A DNA stretch of 64,000 nucleotides from a virus: the IMG/VR virus record IMGVR_UViG_3300033144_005375, positions 18,296-82,295 of that record, one strand, 5' to 3'. A program made the position numbers and the translations under genes. Of the stretch, positions 17,480 to 61,760 are shown in pieces (positions within the stretch are counted from its first letter, which is position 1; every line of letters starts with the position of its first letter). The notes beneath the pieces were generated by a model. That model did not search any database. It had not been told where the DNA came from and saw nothing but the letters and a program-made list of their open reading frames with translations.

Positions 17480-19168
17480 TTATCGGCGTTGCGCGATGAA
17501 CTGAGGACGGAACACGACGGTTGGAGTCGTCGTGGCTCCGTCGGCACCTTGCAAGGTGCCGATGGTGAAAATCGTATTGCCCGAAGTGGTGGGCGGGGTG
17601 GGGGTTGCGAATCCTGAAATTGCTGAGATAAAAACGAGGCTTCCGTTCAACGCTCCTGCGGGAGCGGCGCTGAATCTCACAACCGGGCAAGTGCCTGATT
17701 TGGTGACAACCTCTACAGAGGCACCTAGAAGAACGGTCTCGTTTGCGACGCCAATCACCTCCCAATTAGCCCCGGCAATAGAGGAATCCGCGCGGATGGC
17801 ATCTCCTGCGGCGTCGAGAGCCACCAGATCCCCTATTGTGAGGGCTTCTCCGGCAGTAAAGGTCTTGACCTCCAGATTGCCGAGCGCGTTATCGAGGCCC
17901 GCCAGGTGCGCCGTCAGTTCTTCAACACTCGTGACTTCCGGGGGAGTGGTGTCTCGCGTGTAATTCGTCGGGATATACGTGATGTCGAGGATGTCCCCGT
18001 CAATCTCGTCCGTTCCATTGTGAACATGTGTGGGGGCATGAGGCGCAGGGATCGGATTGCCGAAACTCAGGATCCCAAAACTGTCCGTGATGATGGCTTG
18101 CCCCGCGGTGCCGTCCGCATTCGGCCAAGTCAGCCCATCAATGATCACATTGTCACCAACGCCGGCTCCTGGATCGAGCACCAGATCGGTAACACCGATG
18201 ATGCTGTCCCCAGTGGACACGCTAATGTTAGTGCCTCCTGTGACGTTCCCTAGTATGAGCGTCTGAGCCAGAGTCTCTCCGCCACCACCACCACCAGGGA
18301 TGGTGATGTCCACGGCACCAGCACCCGCCGTGCTTGCGGTGACTCCAGCGCCAATGAAATCGAACGACGTGACCGCAGCATCGACAAGGACACCTTCGTC
18401 GAACACCGCAACCGAACCGCCCCCACCACCTCCAGCGTTGGGGAAGAACTGGCCGCCGATGTAACCGAAGACGTTGGTCCCGAAACCCCCAACATCCCCT
18501 GTCGAGTTGAACTGGGAAACGACCCGACCTTCGGTGAGGCACAGATTGATCCCCGTGAGCGTAACCAAAGGGAGAGGAGCTCCCGTTGGGAGGGGAACTT
18601 CAATGAGGTAAGAGCCCGGATCAGCACCACTCAAACCGTCCCCTGGAATGGCTGCCGAGATGACGTACTCGCCGTCGAACTCCCGATACGCAGCCGGCAC
18701 CCCTGGGGCCGAGAACCCAGTGATGGTGACGGGCTCGCCGACCATGAACCCGATCGAGTCAAGGAGGGTGGGGATCACGTTGTCGGGAATGACGAACCGA
18801 AGCGTCTCCGCCCCTCGTTCGACATTGAGAACCGCAGGCCGGAGGGCTTGCCCCGTTCCTGCTGGGCCGCCACAATTCCCTTTGTCACGAAACTGGAGGA
18901 TGATCTCCGTCGTGATCAGCCCCTGCTTTGTGAAAATGCAGATGTCCCCTTCGTGCCAGGACACGAAAGTGCGCGTGGACATGGGGATGTCCACCGGTGG
19001 CAACGTCGTACCGGCGCCAAACGGAATTGGAACCGCTCGAGTACGATTCTTCTGAATCGTGATCTCGTCGAGATCGTAAAGAGTCACCGACGCCGGATTA
19101 GGGCGCCCGTCGGCGTAGACCCCTGTGTGGGTACACCGGACGATCAGAACGGCGACAATGTTGCTCAT
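17480..19168 (-). CDS. Tail fibre or decoration-like protein
   Basis: HAPTHxxxGTDEI motif; the C-terminal TAGEALTIGD...FRPQFIA domain is paralogous to 14585-17467. Confidence 0.65.
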   Translation of the reverse strand: MSNIVAVLIVRCTHTGVYADGRPNPASVTLYDLDEITIQKNRTRAVPIPFGAGTTLPPVDIPMSTRTFVSWHEGDICIFTKQGLITTEIILQFRDKGNCGGPAGTGQALRPAVLNVERGAETLRFVIPDNVIPTLLDSIGFMVGEPVTITGFSAPGVPAAYREFDGEYVISAAIPGDGLSGADPGSYLIEVPLPTGAPLPLVTLTGINLCLTEGRVVSQFNSTGDVGGFGTNVFGYIGGQFFPNAGGGGGGSVAVFDEGVLVDAAVTSFDFIGAGVTASTAGAGAVDITIPGGGGGGETLAQTLILGNVTGGTNISVSTGDSIIGVTDLVLDPGAGVGDNVIIDGLTWPNADGTAGQAIITDSFGILSFGNPIPAPHAPTHVHNGTDEIDGDILDITYIPTNYTRDTTPPEVTSVEELTAHLAGLDNALGNLEVKTFTAGEALTIGDLVALDAAGDAIRADSSIAGANWEVIGVANETVLLGASVEVVTKSGTCPVVRFSAAPAGALNGSLVFISAISGFATPTPPTTSGNTIFTIGTLQGADGATTTPTVVFRPQFIAQRR

Positions 19169-43155: not shown

Positions 43156-43700
43156 GGAACGACCACGTCTTTGCGTTCGTACGCGAACGCAGAAGGGGGC
43201 TCCGAAGCCATCGCCCTCCGTTGCCAGTCATCAGGCTCAGACGGCTCCATCATGCGCAGGAGGGCTCCTTCGTAGGCGACCGCTCGCGAACGTAGCTCAT
43301 CTTGTTGGCCCAACTTGCCGTTGTACGCATCCACAGCCTGGGAGACCACGAAAGTCACAGCCCCCAACTGTCGAGTTGGGTCCTCTGCCGCCATCACGGC
43401 CCAGTTGGGTGGGATCAAAATGACCGACTGCTGAACACCATCCCGGGCAATGACCGCCATGGTCAACGTCGTAACCTCGGCATGGATCGCTGTCAGGCAG
43501 TGCTCGTGTTCGATAACTTTCCAAGCATAAGCGCCCAGGTCGCTCAGGTCCGCGAGCTCAAGGCTACGGAGAGTCTCCACGCAACCGGTGAAAATACGCT
43601 CGACTCGGTGTGCCTGAGCACGCACGCCAGCATCCGGGCTGTCGTCTGCCTGGATGGCCTGGTCCCCGAAGAGATGGGAAATGATGTTCGTTGCATTCAT
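43152..43700 (-). CDS. Hypothetical protein
   Basis: ATGA-coupled to kptA. Confidence 0.6.
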   Translation of the reverse strand: MNATNIISHLFGDQAIQADDSPDAGVRAQAHRVERIFTGCVETLRSLELADLSDLGAYAWKVIEHEHCLTAIHAEVTTLTMAVIARDGVQQSVILIPPNWAVMAAEDPTRQLGAVTFVVSQAVDAYNGKLGQQDELRSRAVAYEGALLRMMEPSEPDDWQRRAMASEPPSAFAYERKDVVVP

Positions 43701-44281
43701 AGATGTGCTCCGTAACGGGGGTCTTCTGGCCACACGAGGAAATCAGTCGGGACGTGGTCCGTGTACCAAACGTCGTTGGCCGTCAGAAAAAACTGGTGGC
43801 CGTCATCGTGCATCTTCTTGGCCTCGACCTTGATGATGACGGGCTTGCCCCTGCGCTGCCCCACGTTCACCGCCGTCGCGTAGTCCCCAGACAGGTGGAC
43901 CGCGTGCCGGTTCATCTTGAGCAGGCCAGCCGACTTGATCGGTGTGACGAACTTGGTCGGCGTCCCATGGTACAGGGTCTCCGGCGGCTCGGTAGGCTTG
44001 TTCCCGAGATCGACCTGGACGCTGTGTCCCTGTCGAGCCCGGATCTTGGTGCCGTCTTCGCTGTACTCGAACCGCTTCTTGTTGTTGTCTCGAACGACCT
44101 CATCCACGATCTCGCGGTTGAGACCACGAGCTCGCTTCACCACCTGGCACTCCCGAAGGAGCGTCTTCACATCAGCCCAGCCGTTCTTGTCCAACTCGAT
44201 CCCGATCTTGCCGGGGTTGTGCCGCAGCACGAGGCTCAAGAACTTCGAGTACCCCTTTAATTGATTCTCTCTCGTATCCAT
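43697..44281 (-). CDS. kptA: RNA 2'-phosphotransferase (Tpt1/KptA)
   Basis: SKFLSLVLRH, KKRF, IRARQGHS, LYHGT, RHAVHLS and WYTDHVP motifs. Confidence 0.95.
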   Translation of the reverse strand: MDTRENQLKGYSKFLSLVLRHNPGKIGIELDKNGWADVKTLLRECQVVKRARGLNREIVDEVVRDNNKKRFEYSEDGTKIRARQGHSVQVDLGNKPTEPPETLYHGTPTKFVTPIKSAGLLKMNRHAVHLSGDYATAVNVGQRRGKPVIIKVEAKKMHDDGHQFFLTANDVWYTDHVPTDFLVWPEDPRYGAHL

Positions 44282-44415
44282 GTCTTTCTCTTTTCGGGCT
44301 GACTATACGCGGATTATGGTCGAGTCAACTCTAATCATGGACAGGAGTGTCTTGATGGTCAGGACGTAGGGAGGGTCGAGCTCCGACAACTCCCAGCGTT
44401 ATACGCTTGCGGGAT

Positions 44416-44745
44416 CTACGCGTCGGGTTCCAACGAACACATGAGCGGATGCCCGTGCTCGGTAGCGAAACCGTGGACCACCGAAACCTTCGTTTCGGCG
44501 ATTTCATGGGTGTAGACACCCGCGATGCCGACACCCTGTTTGTGGACCTGCATGGTGATCCTCATGGCCTCGTCCTCGGCCTTCCGAAACACATGCTTGA
44601 GCATGCCAGCGACCCACTCTACAGGAGTGAAATCGTCGTTGTGGATGAGGACCTTGTACATGGGCGGCCTGCGAGTCTTCTGCTCCTCGCGCTCCTTGAG
44701 CCCAACGCCGCTTTTTCGTTCTTCGTCCCGATCTCGTTCCGACAT
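44416..44745 (-). CDS. clpS: ATP-dependent Clp protease adaptor ClpS
   Basis: PPMYKVLIHNDDFTP...VHKQGVGIAGVYTHEIAETK...HPL. Confidence 0.95.
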   Translation of the reverse strand: MSERDRDEERKSGVGLKEREEQKTRRPPMYKVLIHNDDFTPVEWVAGMLKHVFRKAEDEAMRITMQVHKQGVGIAGVYTHEIAETKVSVVHGFATEHGHPLMCSLEPDA

Positions 44746-44781
44746 CTCTCTACTTCTACCCGATCGATAGGCTCGTCACCG

Positions 44782-44997
44782 TCACATGCGCCGAGCGATG
44801 GAGGCGTTGGCCCACATGCGGGTCTCCTCCAAACGCTCCATCGCCAGTGCCTGCTCATGAGAATCCGGGCACACCTCGGCGATGAGGTCCGCCAGTTCAC
44901 GGATCTTCGTACCGAGCTTCGTGTACCGCTCCTGCTGATCCCCCTTGGGAGGATGGTAAGTGAAACGGATGTCGAGTTCTTCCTTGGTGAGGGCCAT
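44782..44997 (-). CDS. Acb2/Tad1-like helical-hairpin protein (putative immune-signal sponge)
   Basis: RFTYHPP..DQQERY...CPDSHEQALAMERLEETRMWANASIAR pattern. Confidence 0.7.
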   Translation of the reverse strand: MALTKEELDIRFTYHPPKGDQQERYTKLGTKIRELADLIAEVCPDSHEQALAMERLEETRMWANASIARRM

Positions 44998-45005
44998 GCC
45001 CCACC

Positions 45006-45524
45006 CTACCCGAACACGTCAAACGCCGAAGGCTGATTCTCCCCAACGCCTTCCCGAATCTCATGTTCGGAAGCGACGGTGCCGTCCTTGAGGACATGGG
45101 CCAGCTCGATTCCGCGGTCTATGAGATCGGCCCCCACCAGACGGCGCCTGTGGCACCCAATGGGGTCGGCTTCGCTGCACATCAGGGCGACGGCCCCGAG
45201 CGCAGCATTCTTCTCCACGCCGCCCAGGAGCTCCTCGAGCGCTTCCTGGTACTGGGACGACGCCCGGATCTTGTCGTAGTCGATCTTGCCGTTGGTCAGA
45301 AGCGCCTTGTCCTCTGGAACGCCTCCCAGGGAGTGGCCCATCCACACGTAGGGAATCCCGGCTTCCTGGAGGTCTTCGGCGATCACGTACCGGTTGAACT
45401 GCGGGTTGTAGCGACTGAACGGTTTGCTCCGCACGTCCACCACGACGCCGATGCCGTTCTGCTTGAGCCGCTGGATCAGGTTCTCGGTGGGCACGTTGCT
45501 GTGCCCGATCGTGAAAAGTCTCAT
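45006..45524 (-). CDS. DUF488 family protein
   Basis: LFTIGHSN, VDVRSKPFSR..PQFN, LGG, ALMCSE...CHRR. Confidence 0.9.
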   Translation of the reverse strand: MRLFTIGHSNVPTENLIQRLKQNGIGVVVDVRSKPFSRYNPQFNRYVIAEDLQEAGIPYVWMGHSLGGVPEDKALLTNGKIDYDKIRASSQYQEALEELLGGVEKNAALGAVALMCSEADPIGCHRRRLVGADLIDRGIELAHVLKDGTVASEHEIREGVGENQPSAFDVFG

Positions 45525-46189
45525 CCGTTGAGCAGGTCCATGATGTTGGGGCCCTCGATCACCTTGGGCTTCTCGCGCCACGTCCAGGACTTGCGAGCCT
45601 CGAATGGCAGCTTCCCGTGTTTCTCTTCGTAGACCGCCAGGAAAGCACGAGTCCCCTTGTTGACGTAGCCGCCGCCAGTGATCTTGCCGAACTCGGGCTC
45701 GTACTTCCGGAGAATCTCGTCCATCGCACGGTCTCGCTCCACCTTGGCGATGATGGAGGCCGCCGACACGCAGGTATGCCTTTCGTCCGCCTTGTTCTCC
45801 GCTCGGAGGTTTCCCCATTTGGCTCGAAGGCGTCCGAAGATTGGCTCACCGTCACAGATGATGTCGTCCTCGGCAGTGGCCTCGAGTTCTTCGAGAAGCA
45901 TCATCACCCCTTTCCGTTCAAGGTCATCGAGGCGCCCTTCTTTCACGAACTCATCAATCTCAGCGGGGTGAAACGAGACGAGGGCCCAGTGGCAGCGGGC
46001 CCGGACCGCCGGGACCGCTGCGAGACGGGCCATCTTGGCCTTCTTGCCGCTGCCGTATTTTTTGCTGTCCTGGATGCCGAACTTTTGGAGCTCGGCTTCT
46101 TGTTCAAACGTGATAGCCACGCCAGCCATCACCAGCGGACCCAACACGGGCCCCCGTCCCGCCTCGTCGATTCCGATCAGCCTCTTCAT
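45521..46189 (-). CDS. rnhB: Ribonuclease HII
   Basis: IGIDEAGRGPVLGP, DSKK, DG, KAD, VSAASIIAKVERD, GY. Confidence 0.93.
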   Translation of the reverse strand: MKRLIGIDEAGRGPVLGPLVMAGVAITFEQEAELQKFGIQDSKKYGSGKKAKMARLAAVPAVRARCHWALVSFHPAEIDEFVKEGRLDDLERKGVMMLLEELEATAEDDIICDGEPIFGRLRAKWGNLRAENKADERHTCVSAASIIAKVERDRAMDEILRKYEPEFGKITGGGYVNKGTRAFLAVYEEKHGKLPFEARKSWTWREKPKVIEGPNIMDLLNG

Positions 46190-46722
46190 GGAATCCTCTC
46201 GTAGATGCCTTGGTCGGTGCCCCACTTGAGCCAGTGCCCGATGATCGGATCGAGCATCCCCGCGTGCTCCTCCGGGACCACGCTCTCACCGGTGATTTCG
46301 TGCAAGGCGCAGATGCACCCCCAGATCGACAAAGTGCTTGTCGAAGGGTCGTCACAATCAAGGACCTGGAGGAGTGCCGGCACGATAGCTTTCCCCATCT
46401 CCACCAGGTCTGTGTACTGCGGGTAGCCGATCGGCATGCTCGATAGGAACTTGGTCTCTTCGTACAAATCTCGGAGAACTTCCTCCACAACTTCTTGATG
46501 CGGGTAACGCCCTTCCGGAATGAATCTGCTGCTCTCCAACGCGGCCTTGGCTGCGTCTACGCAAGCGGGGCACGCCAGAAGACGCCCTTCGTTCAGTGCG
46601 TTGGCCGTCACATGATCGAGCCCGATGAATATGAACTCGCGCTGCCACTTGGTGTCGCACCAAAAGGCTCTCACCTCGATGGGGTGCTGGATGTGCTTGA
46701 CGTAACTTGGAAGTAATCTCAT
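46186..46722 (-). CDS. Hypothetical protein with a HEAT-like C-terminus
   Basis: ATGA-coupled at both ends; LVEMGKAIVPALL...ALHEITG. Confidence 0.6.
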   Translation of the reverse strand: MRLLPSYVKHIQHPIEVRAFWCDTKWQREFIFIGLDHVTANALNEGRLLACPACVDAAKAALESSRFIPEGRYPHQEVVEEVLRDLYEETKFLSSMPIGYPQYTDLVEMGKAIVPALLQVLDCDDPSTSTLSIWGCICALHEITGESVVPEEHAGMLDPIIGHWLKWGTDQGIYERIP

Positions 46723-47234
46723 GGCAGTTCCAGGATGAAGCAGCGGTCGTTCGGGGCCTCCGGGATGTAGATCGCGTTCCATCGAATGTTCCGGTTCGGC
46801 ACCATGGCCGTCTCGCCCTCAAGCTCGAAAGGACGTTCCGGCGGCCTCTCCCCCAAAACCAAACGCACACGCTCGGTCACGAGACCCTCTTCGACGCGGT
46901 AGTTGAGAACAGTGGCCACGTCGCCAGCCCATCCGACGACGAGCACACAATGAAGGTTGTGCCCGACCTCGGGATTGTAGACGGTGAGCAACACCGGGAT
47001 CTGACCTTGCACTCGAGCCGCGTCGATCGGGACCGCACGCAAGCCGAAGTGCTCAGCCATTCGTTCTTCCGATATGCCGGCCGAGCCATGACGGCATCCC
47101 GAAACCTCGATGATCTCCTCCCACTCTTCGGAGGAGGGATCGACACACGGGATGCCGTAGAAGCGACAGGCATTGACCATCGCCCGAGGGAGACAGTCAG
47201 CAAATTTGCTGTCTTTTTGGCCGACGTACTGCAT
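46719..47234 (-). CDS. Papain-fold (C39-like) cysteine peptidase
   Basis: Q..DC near the N-terminus, HCVLVVG, and a downstream N in VLN. Confidence 0.55.
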   Translation of the reverse strand: MQYVGQKDSKFADCLPRAMVNACRFYGIPCVDPSSEEWEEIIEVSGCRHGSAGISEERMAEHFGLRAVPIDAARVQGQIPVLLTVYNPEVGHNLHCVLVVGWAGDVATVLNYRVEEGLVTERVRLVLGERPPERPFELEGETAMVPNRNIRWNAIYIPEAPNDRCFILELP

Positions 47235-47245
47235 GGTCAGTCATT

Positions 47246-47503
47246 CTACGCTGCCATCTTTTCACGAAACGTGTTTCGTCCCACAGAGGTGTAGTCCCGG
47301 CGCCTACGGATGGGCTGCGTGAGGCTAGCAGCCAGTTTCGCGCGTCCCGCCGGGGTGTTGATGTACTCGGAGATGAGCTTCTGCTTGATCCTCTCCTTTT
47401 CGGTGAGGACCTTCCCGCGCCCTTTGCACACCTCACATTCCGCGAGGCTCGTGAAAAGCGGGATGACGCCCTTCCCCTTGCAGTCCTTGCACTCGGCCAT
47501 CAC
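47246..47503 (-). CDS. DnaJ-type zinc finger fused to a capsid-N-terminus-like peptide
   Basis: CKDCKGKG and CEVCKGRG, then KQKLISEYINTPAGRAKLAASLTQPIRRRRDYTSVGR. Confidence 0.65.
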   Translation of the reverse strand: MMAECKDCKGKGVIPLFTSLAECEVCKGRGKVLTEKERIKQKLISEYINTPAGRAKLAASLTQPIRRRRDYTSVGRNTFREKMAA

Positions 47504-48846
47504 GCATCCTCCCTGAGCCGCATCGAAAGCAGGTCCCGCGATGCGAGGAGCCCCTCGTCCACGAGGTCACGAACGAACTGCGGATACCATTCGGGGTGGT
47601 GGATCTTGATGGAGACGCGAAGCACCTTGTTCTCGGCGTCCTTCTCGGTGGGTTCAGGGAACTCCACCTCCATGCCGTTTTCCGGAGGCACTTTGACCCC
47701 AGCTTTTTTGGCCTTGACCCGAACCGCTGCGAGCAACTCTGAAATCCTCTCCAACATGGCGTCACGGATATCCCCGTTGTTCTCTTTGCCCTCGAACGCC
47801 GACAGCGTCTTGCGCATCTGAGTCTGGAGGTGCTCGGCCATGTACTGCTGCATCACCGTCGCGTTGTCCTTCTGCTCCCAGAACGTGACACCCGAGACCT
47901 CCAGCTTCTCGAAGGCTTCCTCGACGGTGATCTTCTCGTGCAGCCACTCCTGGAACACCTCGTCGAAATTGTCGTGCCCATCGTTCCCCGACTGGAGCGC
48001 CGCGTGCTGGGCATCGTGACGCGTCTTGTACGGGCCCTCGGACCCTTCGTCGGGGTATTCGGCATCGTGGAAGTACCAGCCAGCCGGGAACGGGCTCTCG
48101 ATCTGGATCACGTTCGGGCCGTCAAGAACCGTCGGCTGCCACATGTCGGGGCGAAGGCTCGTCGTCTTCAACCACCAATTGTCGTCCCTGTCGTAGAACG
48201 TCGGTGCGCGTCGGTCTGTAAACCCCGCATCGTCATCAAGCATCGTCACGACGTGGTGTTGTCCCCGAAGCTCAATGCTCTTGAGGACGTGGTCCACGAA
48301 CTCCTGGGGGAGACGCACGTTGTGCTTCTCGAGATAGTGAGCGAGACCTTCGGGCCACACGTACACGCCGTCCGTGAGCTCGCCACGCCCCATGTCCAGC
48401 GTTTCCTGGCGGCTCGAAAGGTTGGCGTCGGTGCTGTTCTTGGAAGCCGTTCGCCGAGCTGCCCGACGCTGCTCCCAGGTCAGAGACTCATCGGCCGTCC
48501 CGGCCCCGGCAAAGAAGTTCTTCCGGACCCCGAGAACGGTTGGGTCCGGGTCACAACCGAGACGGCACCAGCCGTACAGACCGTTGCCCTCAGCGATGCG
48601 CACGAGGGCACCGCCCCGGAGATAGCTGATCACCCTGCGACGCTCCTCGGGGTCCCAGGAGGCGTCCACGAGGTCCATGGGGTCAGGCCACTTCTGCTCC
48701 CAGTAGTGTTTCCAGAAACCGATCATGCGCAGCTTGACGGGCTTGTCGCGGCCGTCGTCCAGGACGCGACGGGCTTGCATGTAGGTCTCGCCCGTCTCAG
48801 CCATGCGGGCACGGACGCGCTTCTTGAATTGCTTGTTTTGGGTCAT
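47500..48846 (-). CDS. Multidomain protein with an N-terminal basic helical tag
   Basis: Starts MTQNKQFKKRVRARMAETGETYMQARR; internal TDGVYVWPEGLAHYLEKH. Confidence 0.75.
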   Translation of the reverse strand: MTQNKQFKKRVRARMAETGETYMQARRVLDDGRDKPVKLRMIGFWKHYWEQKWPDPMDLVDASWDPEERRRVISYLRGGALVRIAEGNGLYGWCRLGCDPDPTVLGVRKNFFAGAGTADESLTWEQRRAARRTASKNSTDANLSSRQETLDMGRGELTDGVYVWPEGLAHYLEKHNVRLPQEFVDHVLKSIELRGQHHVVTMLDDDAGFTDRRAPTFYDRDDNWWLKTTSLRPDMWQPTVLDGPNVIQIESPFPAGWYFHDAEYPDEGSEGPYKTRHDAQHAALQSGNDGHDNFDEVFQEWLHEKITVEEAFEKLEVSGVTFWEQKDNATVMQQYMAEHLQTQMRKTLSAFEGKENNGDIRDAMLERISELLAAVRVKAKKAGVKVPPENGMEVEFPEPTEKDAENKVLRVSIKIHHPEWYPQFVRDLVDEGLLASRDLLSMRLREDA

Positions 48847-49006
48847 CTTCGATCTTTCGTCTCCGATGAAAGGTGTCGATCCCGCGCTCGACCCCATCAT
48901 CTGACGAGGTTCGAAGATCCCTGCTCGAGGTTTGGTGGCCCCTCTGTCTCCGTTGCATCCTGTCCGCGGGGACAGGCTATGGAGATCAGGCGTGAACGGA
49001 TCGCCC
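48847..49006 (-). ncRNA. Candidate structured leader RNA 1
   Basis: Begins about 6 nt after GGGTAAGGT; at least six hand-identified stems, including one pairing with the start-codon region. Confidence 0.5.
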
Positions 49007-49038
49007 ACACCCACCTTACCCAGCTTTTTGGTTGGCGT

Positions 49039-49575
49039 CTACTCCATCCGCGAGATGAACCAAGCATCCGTGGTGGGGGACACGCGCCACAAGCCCCAGT
49101 GGCTCTTACCGTCCTCATCAGGGCGCCAGGCGACAACGTAGTCGTCACCCTCTCGCCGTACGACATGCCACTGGTGCTTGCAGATCGACACGGTGTCGGA
49201 CTCGACACCATCTTGCACGAACTCCTTCTCGACGACGGTGTCCCCCTTCTCGATGAGGGAGTACCAAGGACGCGAGAACGCCAACGGTGGCGTGTGCTCG
49301 AGCGGCTCTTTCCCATCGATCAGGAGACGAGCAAGAAGGCCGTCTCGTAGTGAGTGCCCAGCTTCAACCTGGAAATCACGACCGTCCTTGAGGGGAGCGT
49401 AACCACCTTGAACACGCAGCTCCATCCAGCGGCCGATGATCTCAACGGTCTTCCGTGCTTCCTCGAGGTCCATGTGGGGGTTCCTAGTTAGGGAGGACAT
49501 TAGGCGGAGTATTGAGTTCTCAGTTGCGTCCCTTGGAGACTTTCTTATGAGGTCCTCGGGGACTGTGTTCGCCAC
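49039..49575 (-). CDS. Hypothetical protein
   Basis: 178-aa ORF with an AGAG/GCAAG upstream region; continues the operon. Confidence 0.6.
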   Translation of the reverse strand: MANTVPEDLIRKSPRDATENSILRLMSSLTRNPHMDLEEARKTVEIIGRWMELRVQGGYAPLKDGRDFQVEAGHSLRDGLLARLLIDGKEPLEHTPPLAFSRPWYSLIEKGDTVVEKEFVQDGVESDTVSICKHQWHVVRREGDDYVVAWRPDEDGKSHWGLWRVSPTTDAWFISRME

Positions 49576-50630
49576 TCTTGCAGCGTCAGAGCGAACCCGG
49601 TGTCTTCGAGCAACCGGCGCAACGCAACCGTGACGTGGTCGCGCACTAGACCACGGATCTCGGGGTTCGCAAGGTGGCTCTTGGTCGGCTGTGTGTACCG
49701 GGGCTCTGGCACGAACACCGACAACGCGATTTTATGCCCCACGTCGTCGAGCCCAACCTCCCGCAGGGCTTCTTCGACTCCCAGGATGTGGGTGCCGCTG
49801 CTCGTACGGATGCTGTTGGCCCAGGACATGAACTTGGACTTGTCGTCTGGATTGTGCGTCCACTGGATCGCCAGATCGAACTCCAAACCCTCACTACGCA
49901 CGACGACCTGGAAAGGCTCAGTCGGGTGGTAGCCGTACTTCGGGAACGACACTTTCAGAAAATCGGACATGCCGCCGGGCATCGAGATGGCACGGATATC
50001 GTCATCAGATCGGATGGTCCCCTGGAGGTTGGTGCAGGTGGCAGCCATCGCTTCCATCCGTCCCTCAATCCCCGCTCGATTGAACGCCACTTCGTCGAAG
50101 ATCTCGGAGTCGGCCTCAAAAGACACAGAGAACGTGAACCCCTCCGGCAACGGGGTCACCTCGAACATCCAGTCATGTTCAGGCTCCCCACGTCGGTAAC
50201 TCCGCGTGTAGTATTTGCCCTCGTAGAGCGCCGTTACCCGGAGAGTCTCCGAAAGGGCTCGGACAATGACGAGCGAGCCACGGACCTGTTGCTCAGAGAT
50301 GAGTCCCCGGTCAAGCCCCCGGTCAAGCTCACCGAGCGCGCGGTCGAGGGCCTGGTGCACACCGCCGTCACCCATCTTGTCGAGAGAGAACGGCGGTTGG
50401 TTGTCGAGGATGGTGACCCGATTACCGTCCAGTTCCACGAGGAAACGATCGCCGCGACCCGCTCGAGCGTTCTCCAAAATGTTGTCGAGCACGGCGTAGA
50501 CGAGATGGTGCTGCATGCCCGCGTGCGTGCCCCCCAGGTACATGCCGGGACGCATGCGGATGTGCTGAGTCGGGCTCGCGATGATCTTGAGGGGGCTGTT
50601 GCCCCATCCCTCTTCTTTTTCGTCCGCCAT
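49545..50630 (-). CDS. Degenerate GyrB/ParE N-terminal (GHKL plus transducer) fragment
   Basis: HIRMRPGMYLG, HHLVY, WANSIRTSSGTH and PEPRYTQPTK are present. ATPase motifs are altered and there is no TOPRIM domain. Confidence 0.8.
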   Translation of the reverse strand: MADEKEEGWGNSPLKIIASPTQHIRMRPGMYLGGTHAGMQHHLVYAVLDNILENARAGRGDRFLVELDGNRVTILDNQPPFSLDKMGDGGVHQALDRALGELDRGLDRGLISEQQVRGSLVIVRALSETLRVTALYEGKYYTRSYRRGEPEHDWMFEVTPLPEGFTFSVSFEADSEIFDEVAFNRAGIEGRMEAMAATCTNLQGTIRSDDDIRAISMPGGMSDFLKVSFPKYGYHPTEPFQVVVRSEGLEFDLAIQWTHNPDDKSKFMSWANSIRTSSGTHILGVEEALREVGLDDVGHKIALSVFVPEPRYTQPTKSHLANPEIRGLVRDHVTVALRRLLEDTGFALTLQEWRTQSPRTS

Positions 50631-51190
50631 CAGGCTTCTTTCCGAAGCCTCTCCCGGGCTTCCATGAGTGCGAATCCCAGGAGATTCTCGCCCTTCCACT
50701 TGTTGGGGTCCTTCGAGTTGGCCTCTTCACGGCGAAGACCGATGCCCCACACCTTGTCATGCGGACTGGCCTCCACGAGCACCATGTCGAGAGTTCCGAG
50801 AAGGAAATCTCGCAGCTCAGGAACCTGACCGAACTTGGCGACGTTGCCGACAACCACGGCCTCGAACTTGTTTCGATCCCACTTGGCCTGGTCCCAGTTG
50901 CTTACCCGGCGACCGAGAAGTTTCGCCTCGTCGGGGCCCGGACTCGCAAGGATGGCTTGAAGAGACATGCCGTCCTCCATGAGACGGGCCTTCTGCGCCA
51001 TCATCCAGTGCTCGGCCGTCGGGTACTTGATGCCGTCGATCTCGAAGTCAGAAAAGTGCCACTGCGAGAAAACGTAAGGGCCGAGTTTGCTCGTGTCGCC
51101 CCCCTTGCGCCCCCAGAATTTGAGGAAGTCGGGACGGGTTCCTTCGTTCCATGCTTTGACGAGTGTGGCTCGATCGCGGAAGTCCATCAC
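50630..51190 (-). CDS. NADAR (YbiA-like) family protein
   Basis: FSQW...TAEHWMMAQKA...AKLLGR...LVEASPHDKVWGIG...WKGENLLGFALMEARE. Confidence 0.93.
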   Translation of the reverse strand: MMDFRDRATLVKAWNEGTRPDFLKFWGRKGGDTSKLGPYVFSQWHFSDFEIDGIKYPTAEHWMMAQKARLMEDGMSLQAILASPGPDEAKLLGRRVSNWDQAKWDRNKFEAVVVGNVAKFGQVPELRDFLLGTLDMVLVEASPHDKVWGIGLRREEANSKDPNKWKGENLLGFALMEARERLRKEA

Positions 51191-51251
51191 TCTTTCTACC
51201 CCTCTGAGACGCCCTCCGAATCCCTTTTCACGAACGGCCTCTGAGAACCAA

Positions 51252-51773
51252 CTACGCTTGTTTGGCCGCCCACGCCTGGATCTTGCGACGATCCTTGCCC
51301 TTGGCCCGGTCGCTCAGAAGAGTGCCCTCCAGGTGGTCGTACTCGTGCTGGAGGGCCACCGAGAGCAGATGGTTGTGGCTCGAATCCATCGTGACCTCTT
51401 TGCCTTCGCGATCGAAGGCTGTGATCTTCACCCACTCGGGACGGCCTACCTCCGCCAGTAATCCAGGAAAACTGAGACAGCCTTCGGGTCGCACCAGACG
51501 GTTGTCGTTCACGGGCTCGATCACCGGGTTGATGAAAACCCAAGGCTCCGTCCGCTTGTTTCCGTTGATGGGCTTCTGATCGAGGATGAAGATGCGAACG
51601 TTCTGCCCCACCTGGGGAGCGGCCAAACCGACTCCTTCGTGGTAGAACATCGTGTAAATCATGTCGTCGATCAGCCCTTGAAACTGATCGAGTTCGTCCA
51701 AATTCACGGGGATGCTCGCAGCCTTCAACGAGGCAACGGGGTACTCGAGGATGCTGAGCAATTTGCCGGACAC
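51252..51773 (-). CDS. def: Peptide deformylase
   Basis: GVGLAAPQVG, EGCLS and QHEYDHLEG motifs; GTG start 6 nt after GGGTACAGT. Confidence 0.95.
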   Translation of the reverse strand: MSGKLLSILEYPVASLKAASIPVNLDELDQFQGLIDDMIYTMFYHEGVGLAAPQVGQNVRIFILDQKPINGNKRTEPWVFINPVIEPVNDNRLVRPEGCLSFPGLLAEVGRPEWVKITAFDREGKEVTMDSSHNHLLSVALQHEYDHLEGTLLSDRAKGKDRRKIQAWAAKQA

Positions 51774-51876
51774 ACCACGACTGTACCCACATGTCCCACA
51801 ACTATGCGAACCCGACCCCACGATCTTCGCAGGGTCGTCTCCATTTTTGAATACCGGTCTTATGGCCGGTTCTTTA

Positions 51877-52653
51877 GTGACTGTGTCTGATGTAGTGCCC
51901 CTACGTGTTCTCCTCGGAGAGAGCAACCCCGGTGATGTTGCGATCCTGGAACACATTCTCACCGAGATGTCGGTCGAGCTTCGTCATTGCAATTCGTTGG
52001 CAGATCTCGAACAACACGGAAAAACCTGGGACCCCGACGTGGTGCTTCTCGACCTGCACCTCGAAAACAGTCAGGATTTCATGGTGACCGCTCGGAGCGT
52101 CGTCGCACTGTTTCCGAACATCCCCATCCTTGCGCTCACCAGTCTCGACAACGAATCCTTTGCCCTACGCGCACTGCAAGCCGGCCTCTCAAGGTACTTG
52201 ATCAAGGGCACGCTTTCAGGCGCGGACTTGATGCGGACCCTCAAAGAAGCACAGGCGAGACAACGAGCCCTGCAACTCTCGCTACCCCCAACGTTCAACC
52301 AAAACGATCTTCGAGAAATGATCCAGGATGCGGTCCGTACCGCGCTCAGCGAACCGGACGACCCCAAAGAAAAATCATCCGTCAGAATCGCAGTCTTGGT
52401 CGTCGTCTCGGTCTTCCTTCTTCTGGGAGGCGCCGTGGGCTGGGGCTACTACCAGATCCAGCAAGCCCACGACGCCAGGAAACCCGCCAAGAAGACTGAG
52501 CAGGACAAAAAGGCGGACCAGTTCCAGGAGTTCCAGAGCCTCCGCAACGCGCACTTCAAAAAGCTAACGCGTTGGGAGAGCAGTGGAAAACTAGGACCGG
52601 CTCCAAAGAAACCACCGCGCCTCGAACAGCTTGAGCAAGAGCTGTCTAAGTGA
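51877..52653 (+). CDS. Response-regulator receiver domain plus TM protein
   Basis: PDVVLLDLHL, PILALTS and YLIKG receiver motifs, then TM IAVLVVVSVFLLLGGAVGWG. Start uncertain. Confidence 0.75.
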   Translation: MTVSDVVPLRVLLGESNPGDVAILEHILTEMSVELRHCNSLADLEQHGKTWDPDVVLLDLHLENSQDFMVTARSVVALFPNIPILALTSLDNESFALRALQAGLSRYLIKGTLSGADLMRTLKEAQARQRALQLSLPPTFNQNDLREMIQDAVRTALSEPDDPKEKSSVRIAVLVVVSVFLLLGGAVGWGYYQIQQAHDARKPAKKTEQDKKADQFQEFQSLRNAHFKKLTRWESSGKLGPAPKKPPRLEQLEQELSK

Positions 52654-61517: not shown

Positions 61518-61683
61518 GATCGTGATCCTTCCTGGTGAGACCCTTAAGAGTTCCGTGCTCGCGTTACGGGGTCTGGGTCTCGAGGAGTGGTCAACGACCA
61601 GGGTTGGAGACGCAGGGTTCGTCAGCGGAGCTTTACCGAGTCTCCCGGGGGAGATGCGAGCGGTAGGCGCTCCTGATGCCTTC
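61518..61683 (-). ncRNA. Candidate structured leader RNA 2 (possible pseudoknot)
   Basis: Stems AGGC/GCCT, TCTCC/GGAGA, TGGTC/GACCA, GAGACCC/GGGTCTC and CCGT/ACGG; the last loop contains GCGAGC, complementary to upstream GCTCGC. Confidence 0.5.
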
Positions 61684-61760
61684 ACCCCTTCTACCCCATC
61701 TTTTTTCACGAACAGCTCAACGAACGATCAACTGCCCCATCCGGGCTGTCCGAGCCCAGT

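Follow-up and report, generated by a model that had tools for sequence, protein, structure and literature searches.

Autogenous translational operators are known for ribosomal protein S15, which acts on the rpsO pseudoknot, and for L20, ThrRS, T4 gp32 and RegA. A further study deals with mycobacterial rpsO (PMC8470358). The lambda N protein, an antiterminator of one family, has boxB/nutL in its own leader; boxB is a short hairpin of about 15 nucleotides (nt) with a GNRA-like pentaloop as the peptide site. The target hairpins of ANTAR regulators share a hexaloop pattern. The available parts of two papers describe the guanidine-II and guanidine-IV riboswitches as kissing-loop or pseudoknotted aptamers (PMC9094411, PMC7736828), and the available part of a third deals with the ANTAR regulators of Actinobacteria and the dual-hairpin RNAs that they target (bioRxiv 10.1101/660928). 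Here we describe a leader RNA in a 64,000-nt stretch of viral DNA (the window; positions 18,296 to 82,295 of IMG/VR virus record IMGVR_UViG_3300033144_005375). The leader is about 160 nt long and lies at window positions 49006-48847, on the minus strand, 5' of a gene for a protein of 448 amino acids (aa). The RNA and the first ~30 codons of this gene, encoding a basic peptide that we call the tag, are inherited as one unit, a cassette that is followed by a variable remainder of the protein, the cargo. The leader belongs to a class of widespread, uncatalogued leader RNAs of ~140-240 nt with a compact fold, and it is very probably a real cis-regulatory leader of a new class.

The sequence-only reading of this DNA had proposed a structured leader with stems P1 to P4 and a closing helix, and comparison with shuffles and homologues bears this out. 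The minimum free energy (MFE) of a 201-nt segment of the window is -84.7 kcal/mol, compared with -64.1 +/- 4.7 kcal/mol for 200 dinucleotide shuffles (z = -4.44; 0 of 200 as good). BLASTN identified the leader upstream of 14 further loci, 12 from metagenomes and two from viruses (one contig), and the resulting phage set contains nine distinct sequences including the window. These leaders are 80-98% identical in nucleotide sequence while the homologous proteins drop to 37% identity. Their RNAalifold consensus has 53 pairs with 97.3% of cells paired, and seven pairs show compensatory changes; shuffles yield 1.8 such pairs, with none of 500 getting to seven, and slid controls yield 0-3. Within the 3' domain, GGGAUCUUCGA (48921-48911) pairs with UCGAAGAU (48852-48845, including the AU of the ATG) and with CCC (48842-48840). 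The closing helix P5 covers the spacer behind the Shine-Dalgarno sequence, the first two bases of the ATG and codons 2-3, and additional pairs reach the Shine-Dalgarno stretch itself; the inner GUCGA/UCGAC stem bears the loop GCGCGGGA. The window's AAAGA in the Shine-Dalgarno region is AAGGA or GAGGA in the other eight phage leaders. A local stem CTTTC/GAAAG, also proposed earlier, is present in the window and had to be abandoned: seven of the nine homologues read CTGTC...GAAGG, which is unable to pair, and the consensus fold pairs this stretch with GAUGAUGG instead.

Covariation upstream of homologues, which had been suggested as a check, is present in the phage leaders and also across the class. 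Two covariance models were used: R1 was built from phage leaders alone, with no bacterial sequence, and R2 from 34 MAFFT-aligned 5' domains, with the window in the seed. In 80 bacterial tag loci, R1 had 31 matches at E <= 1, of which 29 are on the sense strand and directly upstream of the tag start; of the other two, the weak match in L133 (994-1160, 14.9 bits) was rejected as a false positive, because the following open reading frame (ORF) has no tag. The 34 aligned 5' domains have 24 pairs with 89.8% of cells paired, and 20 of the 24 pairs show double changes: 141 cells are changed on both sides, whereas the shuffles give 38.5, with 0 of 500 as high, and the slid controls no more than 45. 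R2 had 54 matches among 77 sources, and every match shares its strand with the tag gene. The 54-row alignment has 25 pairs, 91.1% paired, and 266 cells changed on both sides, compared with 76.5; nested pairs in this alignment lean towards the R2 model, the pseudoknot is outside the model. The R2 score of the window (63.3 bits) is high by construction, as the window is in the seed. The 5' domain, P1-P2-P3-junction-P4, is thus recognisable in phage and bacterial copies alike. A large and very common soil family of ~195-aa proteins with GTG start and KH_2 domain was missed by R1 and has its own divergent but conserved ~150-nt version of the leader with the same parts, including CCCGCGC/GCGCGGG; R2 gave weak matches at the expected place in five of the 16 supplied loci of this family.

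The class-wide sequence of P2, (A)CCUCC/GGAGG, is that of an anti-Shine-Dalgarno/Shine-Dalgarno duplex, and the conserved unpaired GCAAAGGGGA follows it. The soil KH_2 family, from Actinomycetota, comprises loci L020-L087 and most of L090-L125; its KH_2 domain is similar to the one in ribosomal protein S3 (the NCBIfam match to rpsC_bact has E = 6e-7 and scores far under the cut-off), and an RNA-binding cargo behind an RNA-linked tag is possibly worth a look.

Two long-range contacts complete the fold, in the window GUUC/GAGC and CCCGCG/CGCGGG, and both covary across the class. The pseudoknot PK1, in which the P1 loop pairs with the four bases that directly follow P4, emerged unsought from RNAalifold. 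The contact between CGCGGG and CCCGCG had been put forward as a possible kissing or pseudoknot interaction and is now backed by covariation. The P3 loop (L3) was taken from the R2 alignment and its perfect reverse complement was sought in the next 170 nt: a complement of at least 6 nt is present in 50 of the 54 rows and in 21% of 2,430 mismatched locus pairs, and a complement of at least 7 nt in 43 of the 54 rows and in 6.2% of these pairs. At least ten different L3 sequences occur, each with its own partner, for example CCCACGC, CCCGCGC, CCUGCGC and CUCACGC, as well as CUCGCGC, CCCGCAC, CCCCAGC and CCUACGC. A cruder finder for hairpin pairs identified kissing loops in 39 of 47 sequences, compared with 222 of 940 shuffles, and the contact is present in all 15 rows of an additional set, of which 13 come from genomes that had not been picked by tag and two are the phage copies L169 and L171. 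We also considered that paralogous cassettes might use orthogonal kissing loops. The phage relative described below indeed has two loop pairs, but the two cassettes of one bacterial genome use the identical loop, and there is thus no orthogonality rule. The coordinates of all elements are listed in Table 1.

Table 1. Elements of the leader and tagged gene, in window coordinates (percentages refer to paired cells)
Feature	Position	Strand	Remarks
-35-like hexamer TAGACG	49036..49041	minus	17 nt upstream of -10; T[AGT]GAC[GA] in 8/9 phage homologues
Extended -10-like GGGTAAGGT (TANNNT type)	49013..49021	minus	GGGTAnnnT in 9/9 phage leaders; TAAGGT = 49018-49013
P1 hairpin, GGCG 49005-49002 / CGCC 48992-48989	48989..49005	minus	96.7% paired, 3/4 pairs covary (54 rows)
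P2, UCUCC 48985-48981 / GGAGA 48951-48947	48947..48985	minus	encloses P3; 5/5 pairs covary, 96.9-98.8% paired
P3, CCUGUC / GACAGG	48976-48971 / 48964-48959	minus	6/6 pairs covary
P3 loop L3, CCCGCG	48970-48965	minus	
Purine-rich junction CAGAGGGG + P4 + PK1 3' strand GAGC	48923..48946	minus	junction is GCAAAGGGGA in most class members
P4, GGGG / CCUC	48942-48939 / 48930-48927	minus	91-93% paired
PK1 pseudoknot, P1-loop GUUC / GAGC	48997-48994 / 48926-48923	minus	4/4 pairs covary, 96.3% paired (34 rows)
3' domain, long hairpin	48840..48921	minus	RNAalifold consensus
Closing helix P5	48921-48903 / 48861-48840	minus	13/18 pairs never vary in 9 phage leaders
Apical P6	48901-48888 / 48879-48865	minus	RNAalifold consensus
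Loop L6, GCGCGGGA	48880..48887	minus	CGCGGG 48886-48881 complementary to L3
Shine-Dalgarno region	48853..48864	minus	GGAG 48864-48861; paired in consensus fold
Start codon 48846-48844 + 29 tag codons MTQNKQFKKRVRARMAETGETYMQARRVL	48760..48846	minus	20/24 homologues start exactly here
Cargo of the window copy	47500..48759	minus	weak DUF7919-like stretch + conserved C-terminal module of unknown function

RNA and tag are strictly co-inherited. A tag-start ORF follows about 60-150 nt after the 5' domain: in the window it begins with MTQNKQFKKRVRARMAETGETYMQARR at 48846, and all 54 model matches in the tag loci are followed by a tag start. When 15 bacterial genomes were scanned with R2, 12 had exactly one match each, with a tag ORF following in 12 of 12; three of these matches are at a locus other than the one that had led to the genome. 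In a further sample of 121 genomes of one class, evenly drawn and not chosen by tag, there were 14 matches in 12 genomes, and in 13 of 13 new matches a tag ORF begins 68-89 nt further on; leaving out the unpublished genomes G032 and G041, the count is 11 of 11. In the combined genome scans, 25 of 25 RNA matches precede a tag ORF, and one genome has three cassettes with different cargo. The proposal of a portable cassette of RNA and tag with variable cargo is therefore upheld in part, namely in the co-inheritance and in the unrelated cargo domains; that the tag recognises the RNA stays a proposal, weighed below. Covariation between residues of tag and RNA was viewed by eye and dropped: the variants follow cargo clades and any such signal is confounded by relatedness.

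The tag has the consensus MTxxxxFKxxVRARMxxTGExYxxAR. A protein search identified 24 relatives, of which 20 begin at MTQ/MTR, three are called 18-19 residues upstream and one is an N-terminally cut fragment. The amino acids are fixed and the synonymous codons vary (Arg12 is encoded by five different codons), indicating selection on the peptide. K8, R12, R14 and Y22 are invariant. AlphaFold predicts two helices, residues 5-18 and 22-29, with moderate confidence (predicted local distance difference test, pLDDT, 63-75). A 33-position profile of the tag matches at least 4,224 representatives of clusters at 50% identity (E <= 0.001, among 1.84 billion), 500 of them at E <= 1e-10. Among the best 150 of these 4,224, the match begins at residue 1-2 in 131; in the remaining 19 it lies 10-130 residues further inside, which is what gene callers running on into the leader would produce. 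In a species-genome collection, 204 of 238 candidate stretches contain relatives. The record titles of tag carriers name Actinomycetota, Chloroflexota, Gemmatimonadota, Planctomycetota and a 'Deltaproteobacteria' metagenome-assembled genome; the tag scan returned five viral-contig loci and 80 metagenome loci. Seven plasmid records have a tag match, with uninformative annotation. There is no usable tag match in the ESM Atlas, and tblastn with the tag found no match in GenBank phages.

Behind the tag, the proteins have little in common. Among the phage-family homologues, which share leader and tag, entire domains are present in some and absent from others, and 20 sampled cargo proteins include KH_2, ClpS, AHSA1+DUF4287, BtrH_N+DUF4872, DUF2087, WD40 and Lar-like domains, with seven of the 20 having no family; Prok-JAB is also among the cargo Pfam matches. 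One coherent pathway or transport function, as expected downstream of a metabolite riboswitch, was not found among these 20, and a metabolite-specific switch is unlikely because the cargo is too diverse. The window's own cargo has a Pfam DUF7919 match below the cut-off (E = 2.3e-4, 21.8 bits, cut-off 27), a mean pLDDT of 66.7 in the AlphaFold model, and no fold match in the PDB at E <= 0.001 (Foldseek).

The closest relative with the same element, a 213-kb record, has two cassettes with different cargo, at G001:C1:5462-5635 (locus L171:1501-1674) and G001:C1:9588-9759. The second, divergent copy, 4 kb from the first, is a full-length R1 match (63.6 bits, E about 1e-12) and precedes an ORF starting MSREQDFKKRVREHAEKHGMSYQAAREQL, a tag-like N-terminus on another cargo. 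Here, both kissing loops have changed together (CCCGCG/CGCGGG to CCCGCAC/GUGCGGG) and the closing helix has a compensated change (AUCUUCGA/UCGAAGAU to UCCUCG/CGAGGA). The protein of this second cassette has ~290 aa and a Cys-rich C-terminus.

Within the window, no further cassette copy was identified by peptide motif, by BLASTN or TBLASTN, or by the R1 and R2 models. One extra R1 match at the locus itself (33.2 bits) is the opposite strand of the same near-palindromic hairpin. The sequence-only reading had listed a 'copy 2' at 61518-61696 (minus strand), which did not hold up: it is not homologous by R1 or R2 and its protein begins with a different module. This region is a gap of ~165 nt behind a -10-like box GGGTAGAAG, and the gene starts at ATG 61516 with MDSTNSSTIPSLKTQAKLLRQHLAEQG; leader and N-terminal module may be a second, unrelated pair.

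The conserved -35/-10 pair directly before the leader is probably its promoter, an assignment that rests on conservation. Similarity between phage loci starts sharply at the -35-like element, and the upstream genes differ between loci; the -10-like box that had been noticed before the leader is borne out by its conservation in every phage leader (Table 1). Across the class, TANNNT is found 3-14 nt before P1 in 46 of the 54 members, compared with 145 of 5006 control windows (2.9%), and the RNA therefore probably starts at P1; for the window, the position of the promoter-like pair predicts a transcript start at about 49006.

It is extremely improbable that the leader is instead coding, with the protein beginning at GTG 49014, or at ATG 48900 as in one gene caller. 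The window's frame is open from 49014 and the database entries P0001, P0007 and P0010 begin 18-19 residues upstream; however, seven of the nine phage leaders have in-frame stop codons, and the region is therefore conserved as non-coding sequence. Translation from GTG 49014, which would have spoken against an untranslated leader, is excluded as a conserved feature by these stops and by the position of the GTG within the -10 element. A short upstream ORF from ATG 48900 was likewise discarded, its ATG being missing in L018 and L019. Furthermore, 20 of the 24 homologues start at MTQ, and reading the P6 stem-loop as codons is what gives the conserved 'peptide' upstream.

The 3' part of the leader brings the fold to the ribosome-binding site. 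In the 54 loci, P1 and the start codon are separated by a median of 159.5 nt (range 140-237). Pairing between the 22 nt behind the pseudoknot and a stretch made up of the leader's last 20 nt and the start codon is more stable within a locus (cis, mean -14.9 kcal/mol) than across loci (trans, mean -11.9 kcal/mol; 53 cis and 2,746 trans pairs, Mann-Whitney p = 2e-5). In the MFE folds of the 54 sequences, on average 4.4 of the 14 bases of the Shine-Dalgarno window are unpaired, and the start codon is fully paired in 15. By consensus fold and cis/trans test, the structured leader thus overlaps the Shine-Dalgarno sequence and start codon in the way that autogenous operators do. As the folded state hides the ribosome-binding site, the RNA most likely controls translation initiation, and the predicted burial of Shine-Dalgarno sequence and start codon suggests that the fold limits it.

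We propose the following mechanism. The 448-aa gene (48846-47500) would be transcribed with a 5' untranslated leader from the upstream -35/-10 pair, and this leader would fold into a 5' domain consisting of P1, P2 enclosing P3, the purine-rich junction and P4. The P1 loop would pair with the bases just after P4 and the apical loop of the 3' hairpin would kiss the P3 loop; the basal helix of this hairpin would pair with the Shine-Dalgarno/start-codon region, hiding the ribosome-binding site. The tag peptide, nascent or mature, could then dock on the folded leader and stabilise the closed state, and translation would thereby become autogenous and self-limiting, a property that would move along with the cassette for any cargo. 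Overall, a leader that hides the ribosome-binding site, joined with the tag in a cassette and preferably closed by peptide docking, is the best explanation that we have, and we favour it tentatively, as an account that comes close to being probable. That the tag binds the leader and gives autogenous control is well possible: the tag is taken as the partner of the RNA because nothing else is common downstream and because both parts have invariant positions. More tentatively still, RNA and peptide may be a co-evolved ribonucleoprotein switch, in which the first 30 residues dock on the double-pseudoknotted leader of their own mRNA, co-translationally in cis, or in trans among the cell's cassette mRNAs, and close the ribosome-binding site.

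Several observations weigh against this account. Of the 121 sampled genomes, 109 have no RNA match, and for each genome only the top 34-150 candidates were scored, with rough model E-values, so that untagged copies of the RNA may have been missed. The tag matches no family in Pfam (E <= 5), NCBIfam (E <= 1) or a PDB profile search (E <= 10), and no entry there identifies it as an RNA binder. Within the phage set covariation is uninformative on the closing helix, as 13 of its 18 pairs never change. A scan for strict sigma-70 consensus listed no promoter in the window. Among the three RNA-labelled sequencing runs that were searched, run X19 contains an 864-nt contig of a relative (less than 90% identical) that spans 48496-49044, which proves no transcription. 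Finally, four viral contigs, L003-L006, carry a tag but no RNA. The tag can therefore act alone, as would be expected from the main rival explanation: the RNA could sense something else (a small molecule, an ion, temperature, or a trans-acting protein or RNA), and the tag could have a separate job, for example in nucleic-acid anchoring, assembly, localisation or turnover, the pair being a convenient 'expression plus address' cassette. The architecture would suit such a sensor, as a double pseudoknot and kissing loop around an invariant purine-rich junction resemble ligand-binding aptamers, with Shine-Dalgarno sequence and AUG sequestered, and the three cassettes with different cargo in one genome would fit a shared regulon signal. 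Still, we consider it rather unlikely: the downstream proteins share no function beyond the tag, unlike those of known metabolite riboswitches, and if the tag were irrelevant to the RNA it would be hard to explain that the RNA never occurs without it in the genome scans.

The strict link to the peptide is also left unexplained if the leader is constitutive and does not switch, acting as a 5'-terminal stabiliser against RNases or as a ribosome standby or enhancer platform. P1 at the predicted 5' end, just after the -10 element, and the conserved unpaired purine-rich tract GCAAAGGGGA agree with such a role, but a stabiliser requires neither a covarying kissing loop nor a second pseudoknot nor a helix that buries Shine-Dalgarno sequence and AUG, and we regard this explanation as improbable. 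A role of the conserved stretch as DNA, for example as the recombination or insertion end of a small mobile cassette, is very improbable. It would account for the sharp onset of similarity at the -35 element between phage loci with different upstream genes, and for a unit of promoter, leader and 30 codons on unrelated genes; the compensatory changes, however, keep pairing that tolerates G-U on the sense strand, and the element is always sense-oriented at a fixed distance before a start codon.

The window derives from an 82-kb IMG/VR virus record with a CheckV completeness of 16%; for the 213-kb record, CheckV completeness is 40%, and if these estimates hold, both records are fragments of phages of ~0.5 Mb. 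The tagged gene has its ATG at 48846, and the upstream ORF stops at 49039; the 192 nt between that stop and the gene start contain all that the sequence-only reading had listed. As the sequence-only reading had remarked, a long leader is unusual here: the surrounding minus-strand ORFs overlap or have a few bases between them, which makes a gap of this size conspicuous. An 85-aa ORF (47246-47503, minus strand) overlaps the stop of the tagged gene, with probable translational coupling; it has two CxxCxGxG motifs and a weak DnaJ_CXXCXGXG match (E = 1.2e-4), as in a DnaJ-type zinc finger. Accessory genes form a run at 43697-51962 (minus strand), with the cassette at its head or inside it, and the translations of these genes by eye resemble peptide deformylase, NADAR, GyrB-like ATPase, RNase HII, DUF488, ClpS and Tpt1.

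The sequencing runs that contain this DNA are marine sediment, cold-seep and seawater metagenomes. In the RNA-labelled runs, two small identical contigs span 48697-48839 and 49013-49274 and show no transcript, start site or strand. The 864-nt contig is from a sediment metatranscriptome library and contains leader and gene start, followed 285 letters away by a second partial promoter-plus-5'-domain, which suggests tandem cassettes in a relative.

An Rfam search, also suggested at the outset, was run and no family matches the leader: Rfam 15 (4227 models) gave no match at gathering score on the whole window or on 20 related loci, and at permissive settings the phage leader and two leaders from bacteria had chance-level matches alone (E 1-5.5). 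Our literature search found no description of the leader RNA or the peptide, though supplements of RNA-discovery studies could list the RNA under another name; the accessible part of the 224-motif paper (PMC5737381) describes neither. If the pairing is functional, bacteria and phages share a new class of RNA with a complex fold and two covariation-supported tertiary contacts, a good structural target. If the proposed coupling is true as well, it would be the first case known to us of a cis-regulatory RNA inherited with a short peptide and not with a protein family, and it would explain a very common unnamed N-terminal motif. The cassette would then be a natural, transplantable module for dosage control (or mRNA tethering) that any gene could receive, and a compact part, supplied by nature, for self-limiting expression. 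It would have spread through no fewer than five bacterial phyla, and marine phages of ~0.5 Mb would have captured it more than once. For phage biology, it would mean that giant marine phages reuse a control cassette of bacteria to head a cluster of accessory genes.

The cassette has features in common with the known systems described at the beginning. With the guanidine-II and guanidine-IV aptamers, as far as the available parts of the papers describe them, it shares a loop-loop contact between two hairpins of a 5' leader and a covariation-supported tertiary pairing that governs access to the expression platform; unlike them, it has no Rfam match, its loops are 6-8 nt long and variable, and the genes downstream share an N-terminal peptide and no pathway. 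ANTAR proteins are similar in being a portable RNA-binding module joined to variable domains, with target RNAs at ORF starts that repress translation; as the available part of that source has it, ANTAR is a C-terminal domain that acts in trans on the two-hairpin RNAs of other genes. The tag, in contrast, is N-terminal and on the regulated gene itself, and the RNA fold is different and larger. Like lambda N, the window gene is a phage gene whose product has a short basic helical N-terminus and whose own leader holds an RNA that the peptide could bind. However, this leader is ~160 nt long with two long-range contacts, its conserved loops are CCCGCG and GCGCGGGA with no boxB-like hairpin conserved, and the tag is distributed over thousands of bacterial protein clusters. 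Autogenous operators, together with lambda N/boxB the closest working analogues, have a structured and often pseudoknotted leader that overlaps the ribosome-binding site and the gene's own product as ligand, which for the cassette is a proposal; they have no sequence or Rfam relationship to the leader. In these operators the RNA is tied to one protein family, whereas here an RNA and a 30-residue peptide are found on many unrelated proteins. It is this grafting of one RNA-peptide pair onto many protein families that sets the cassette apart from both the autogenous operators and lambda N/boxB.

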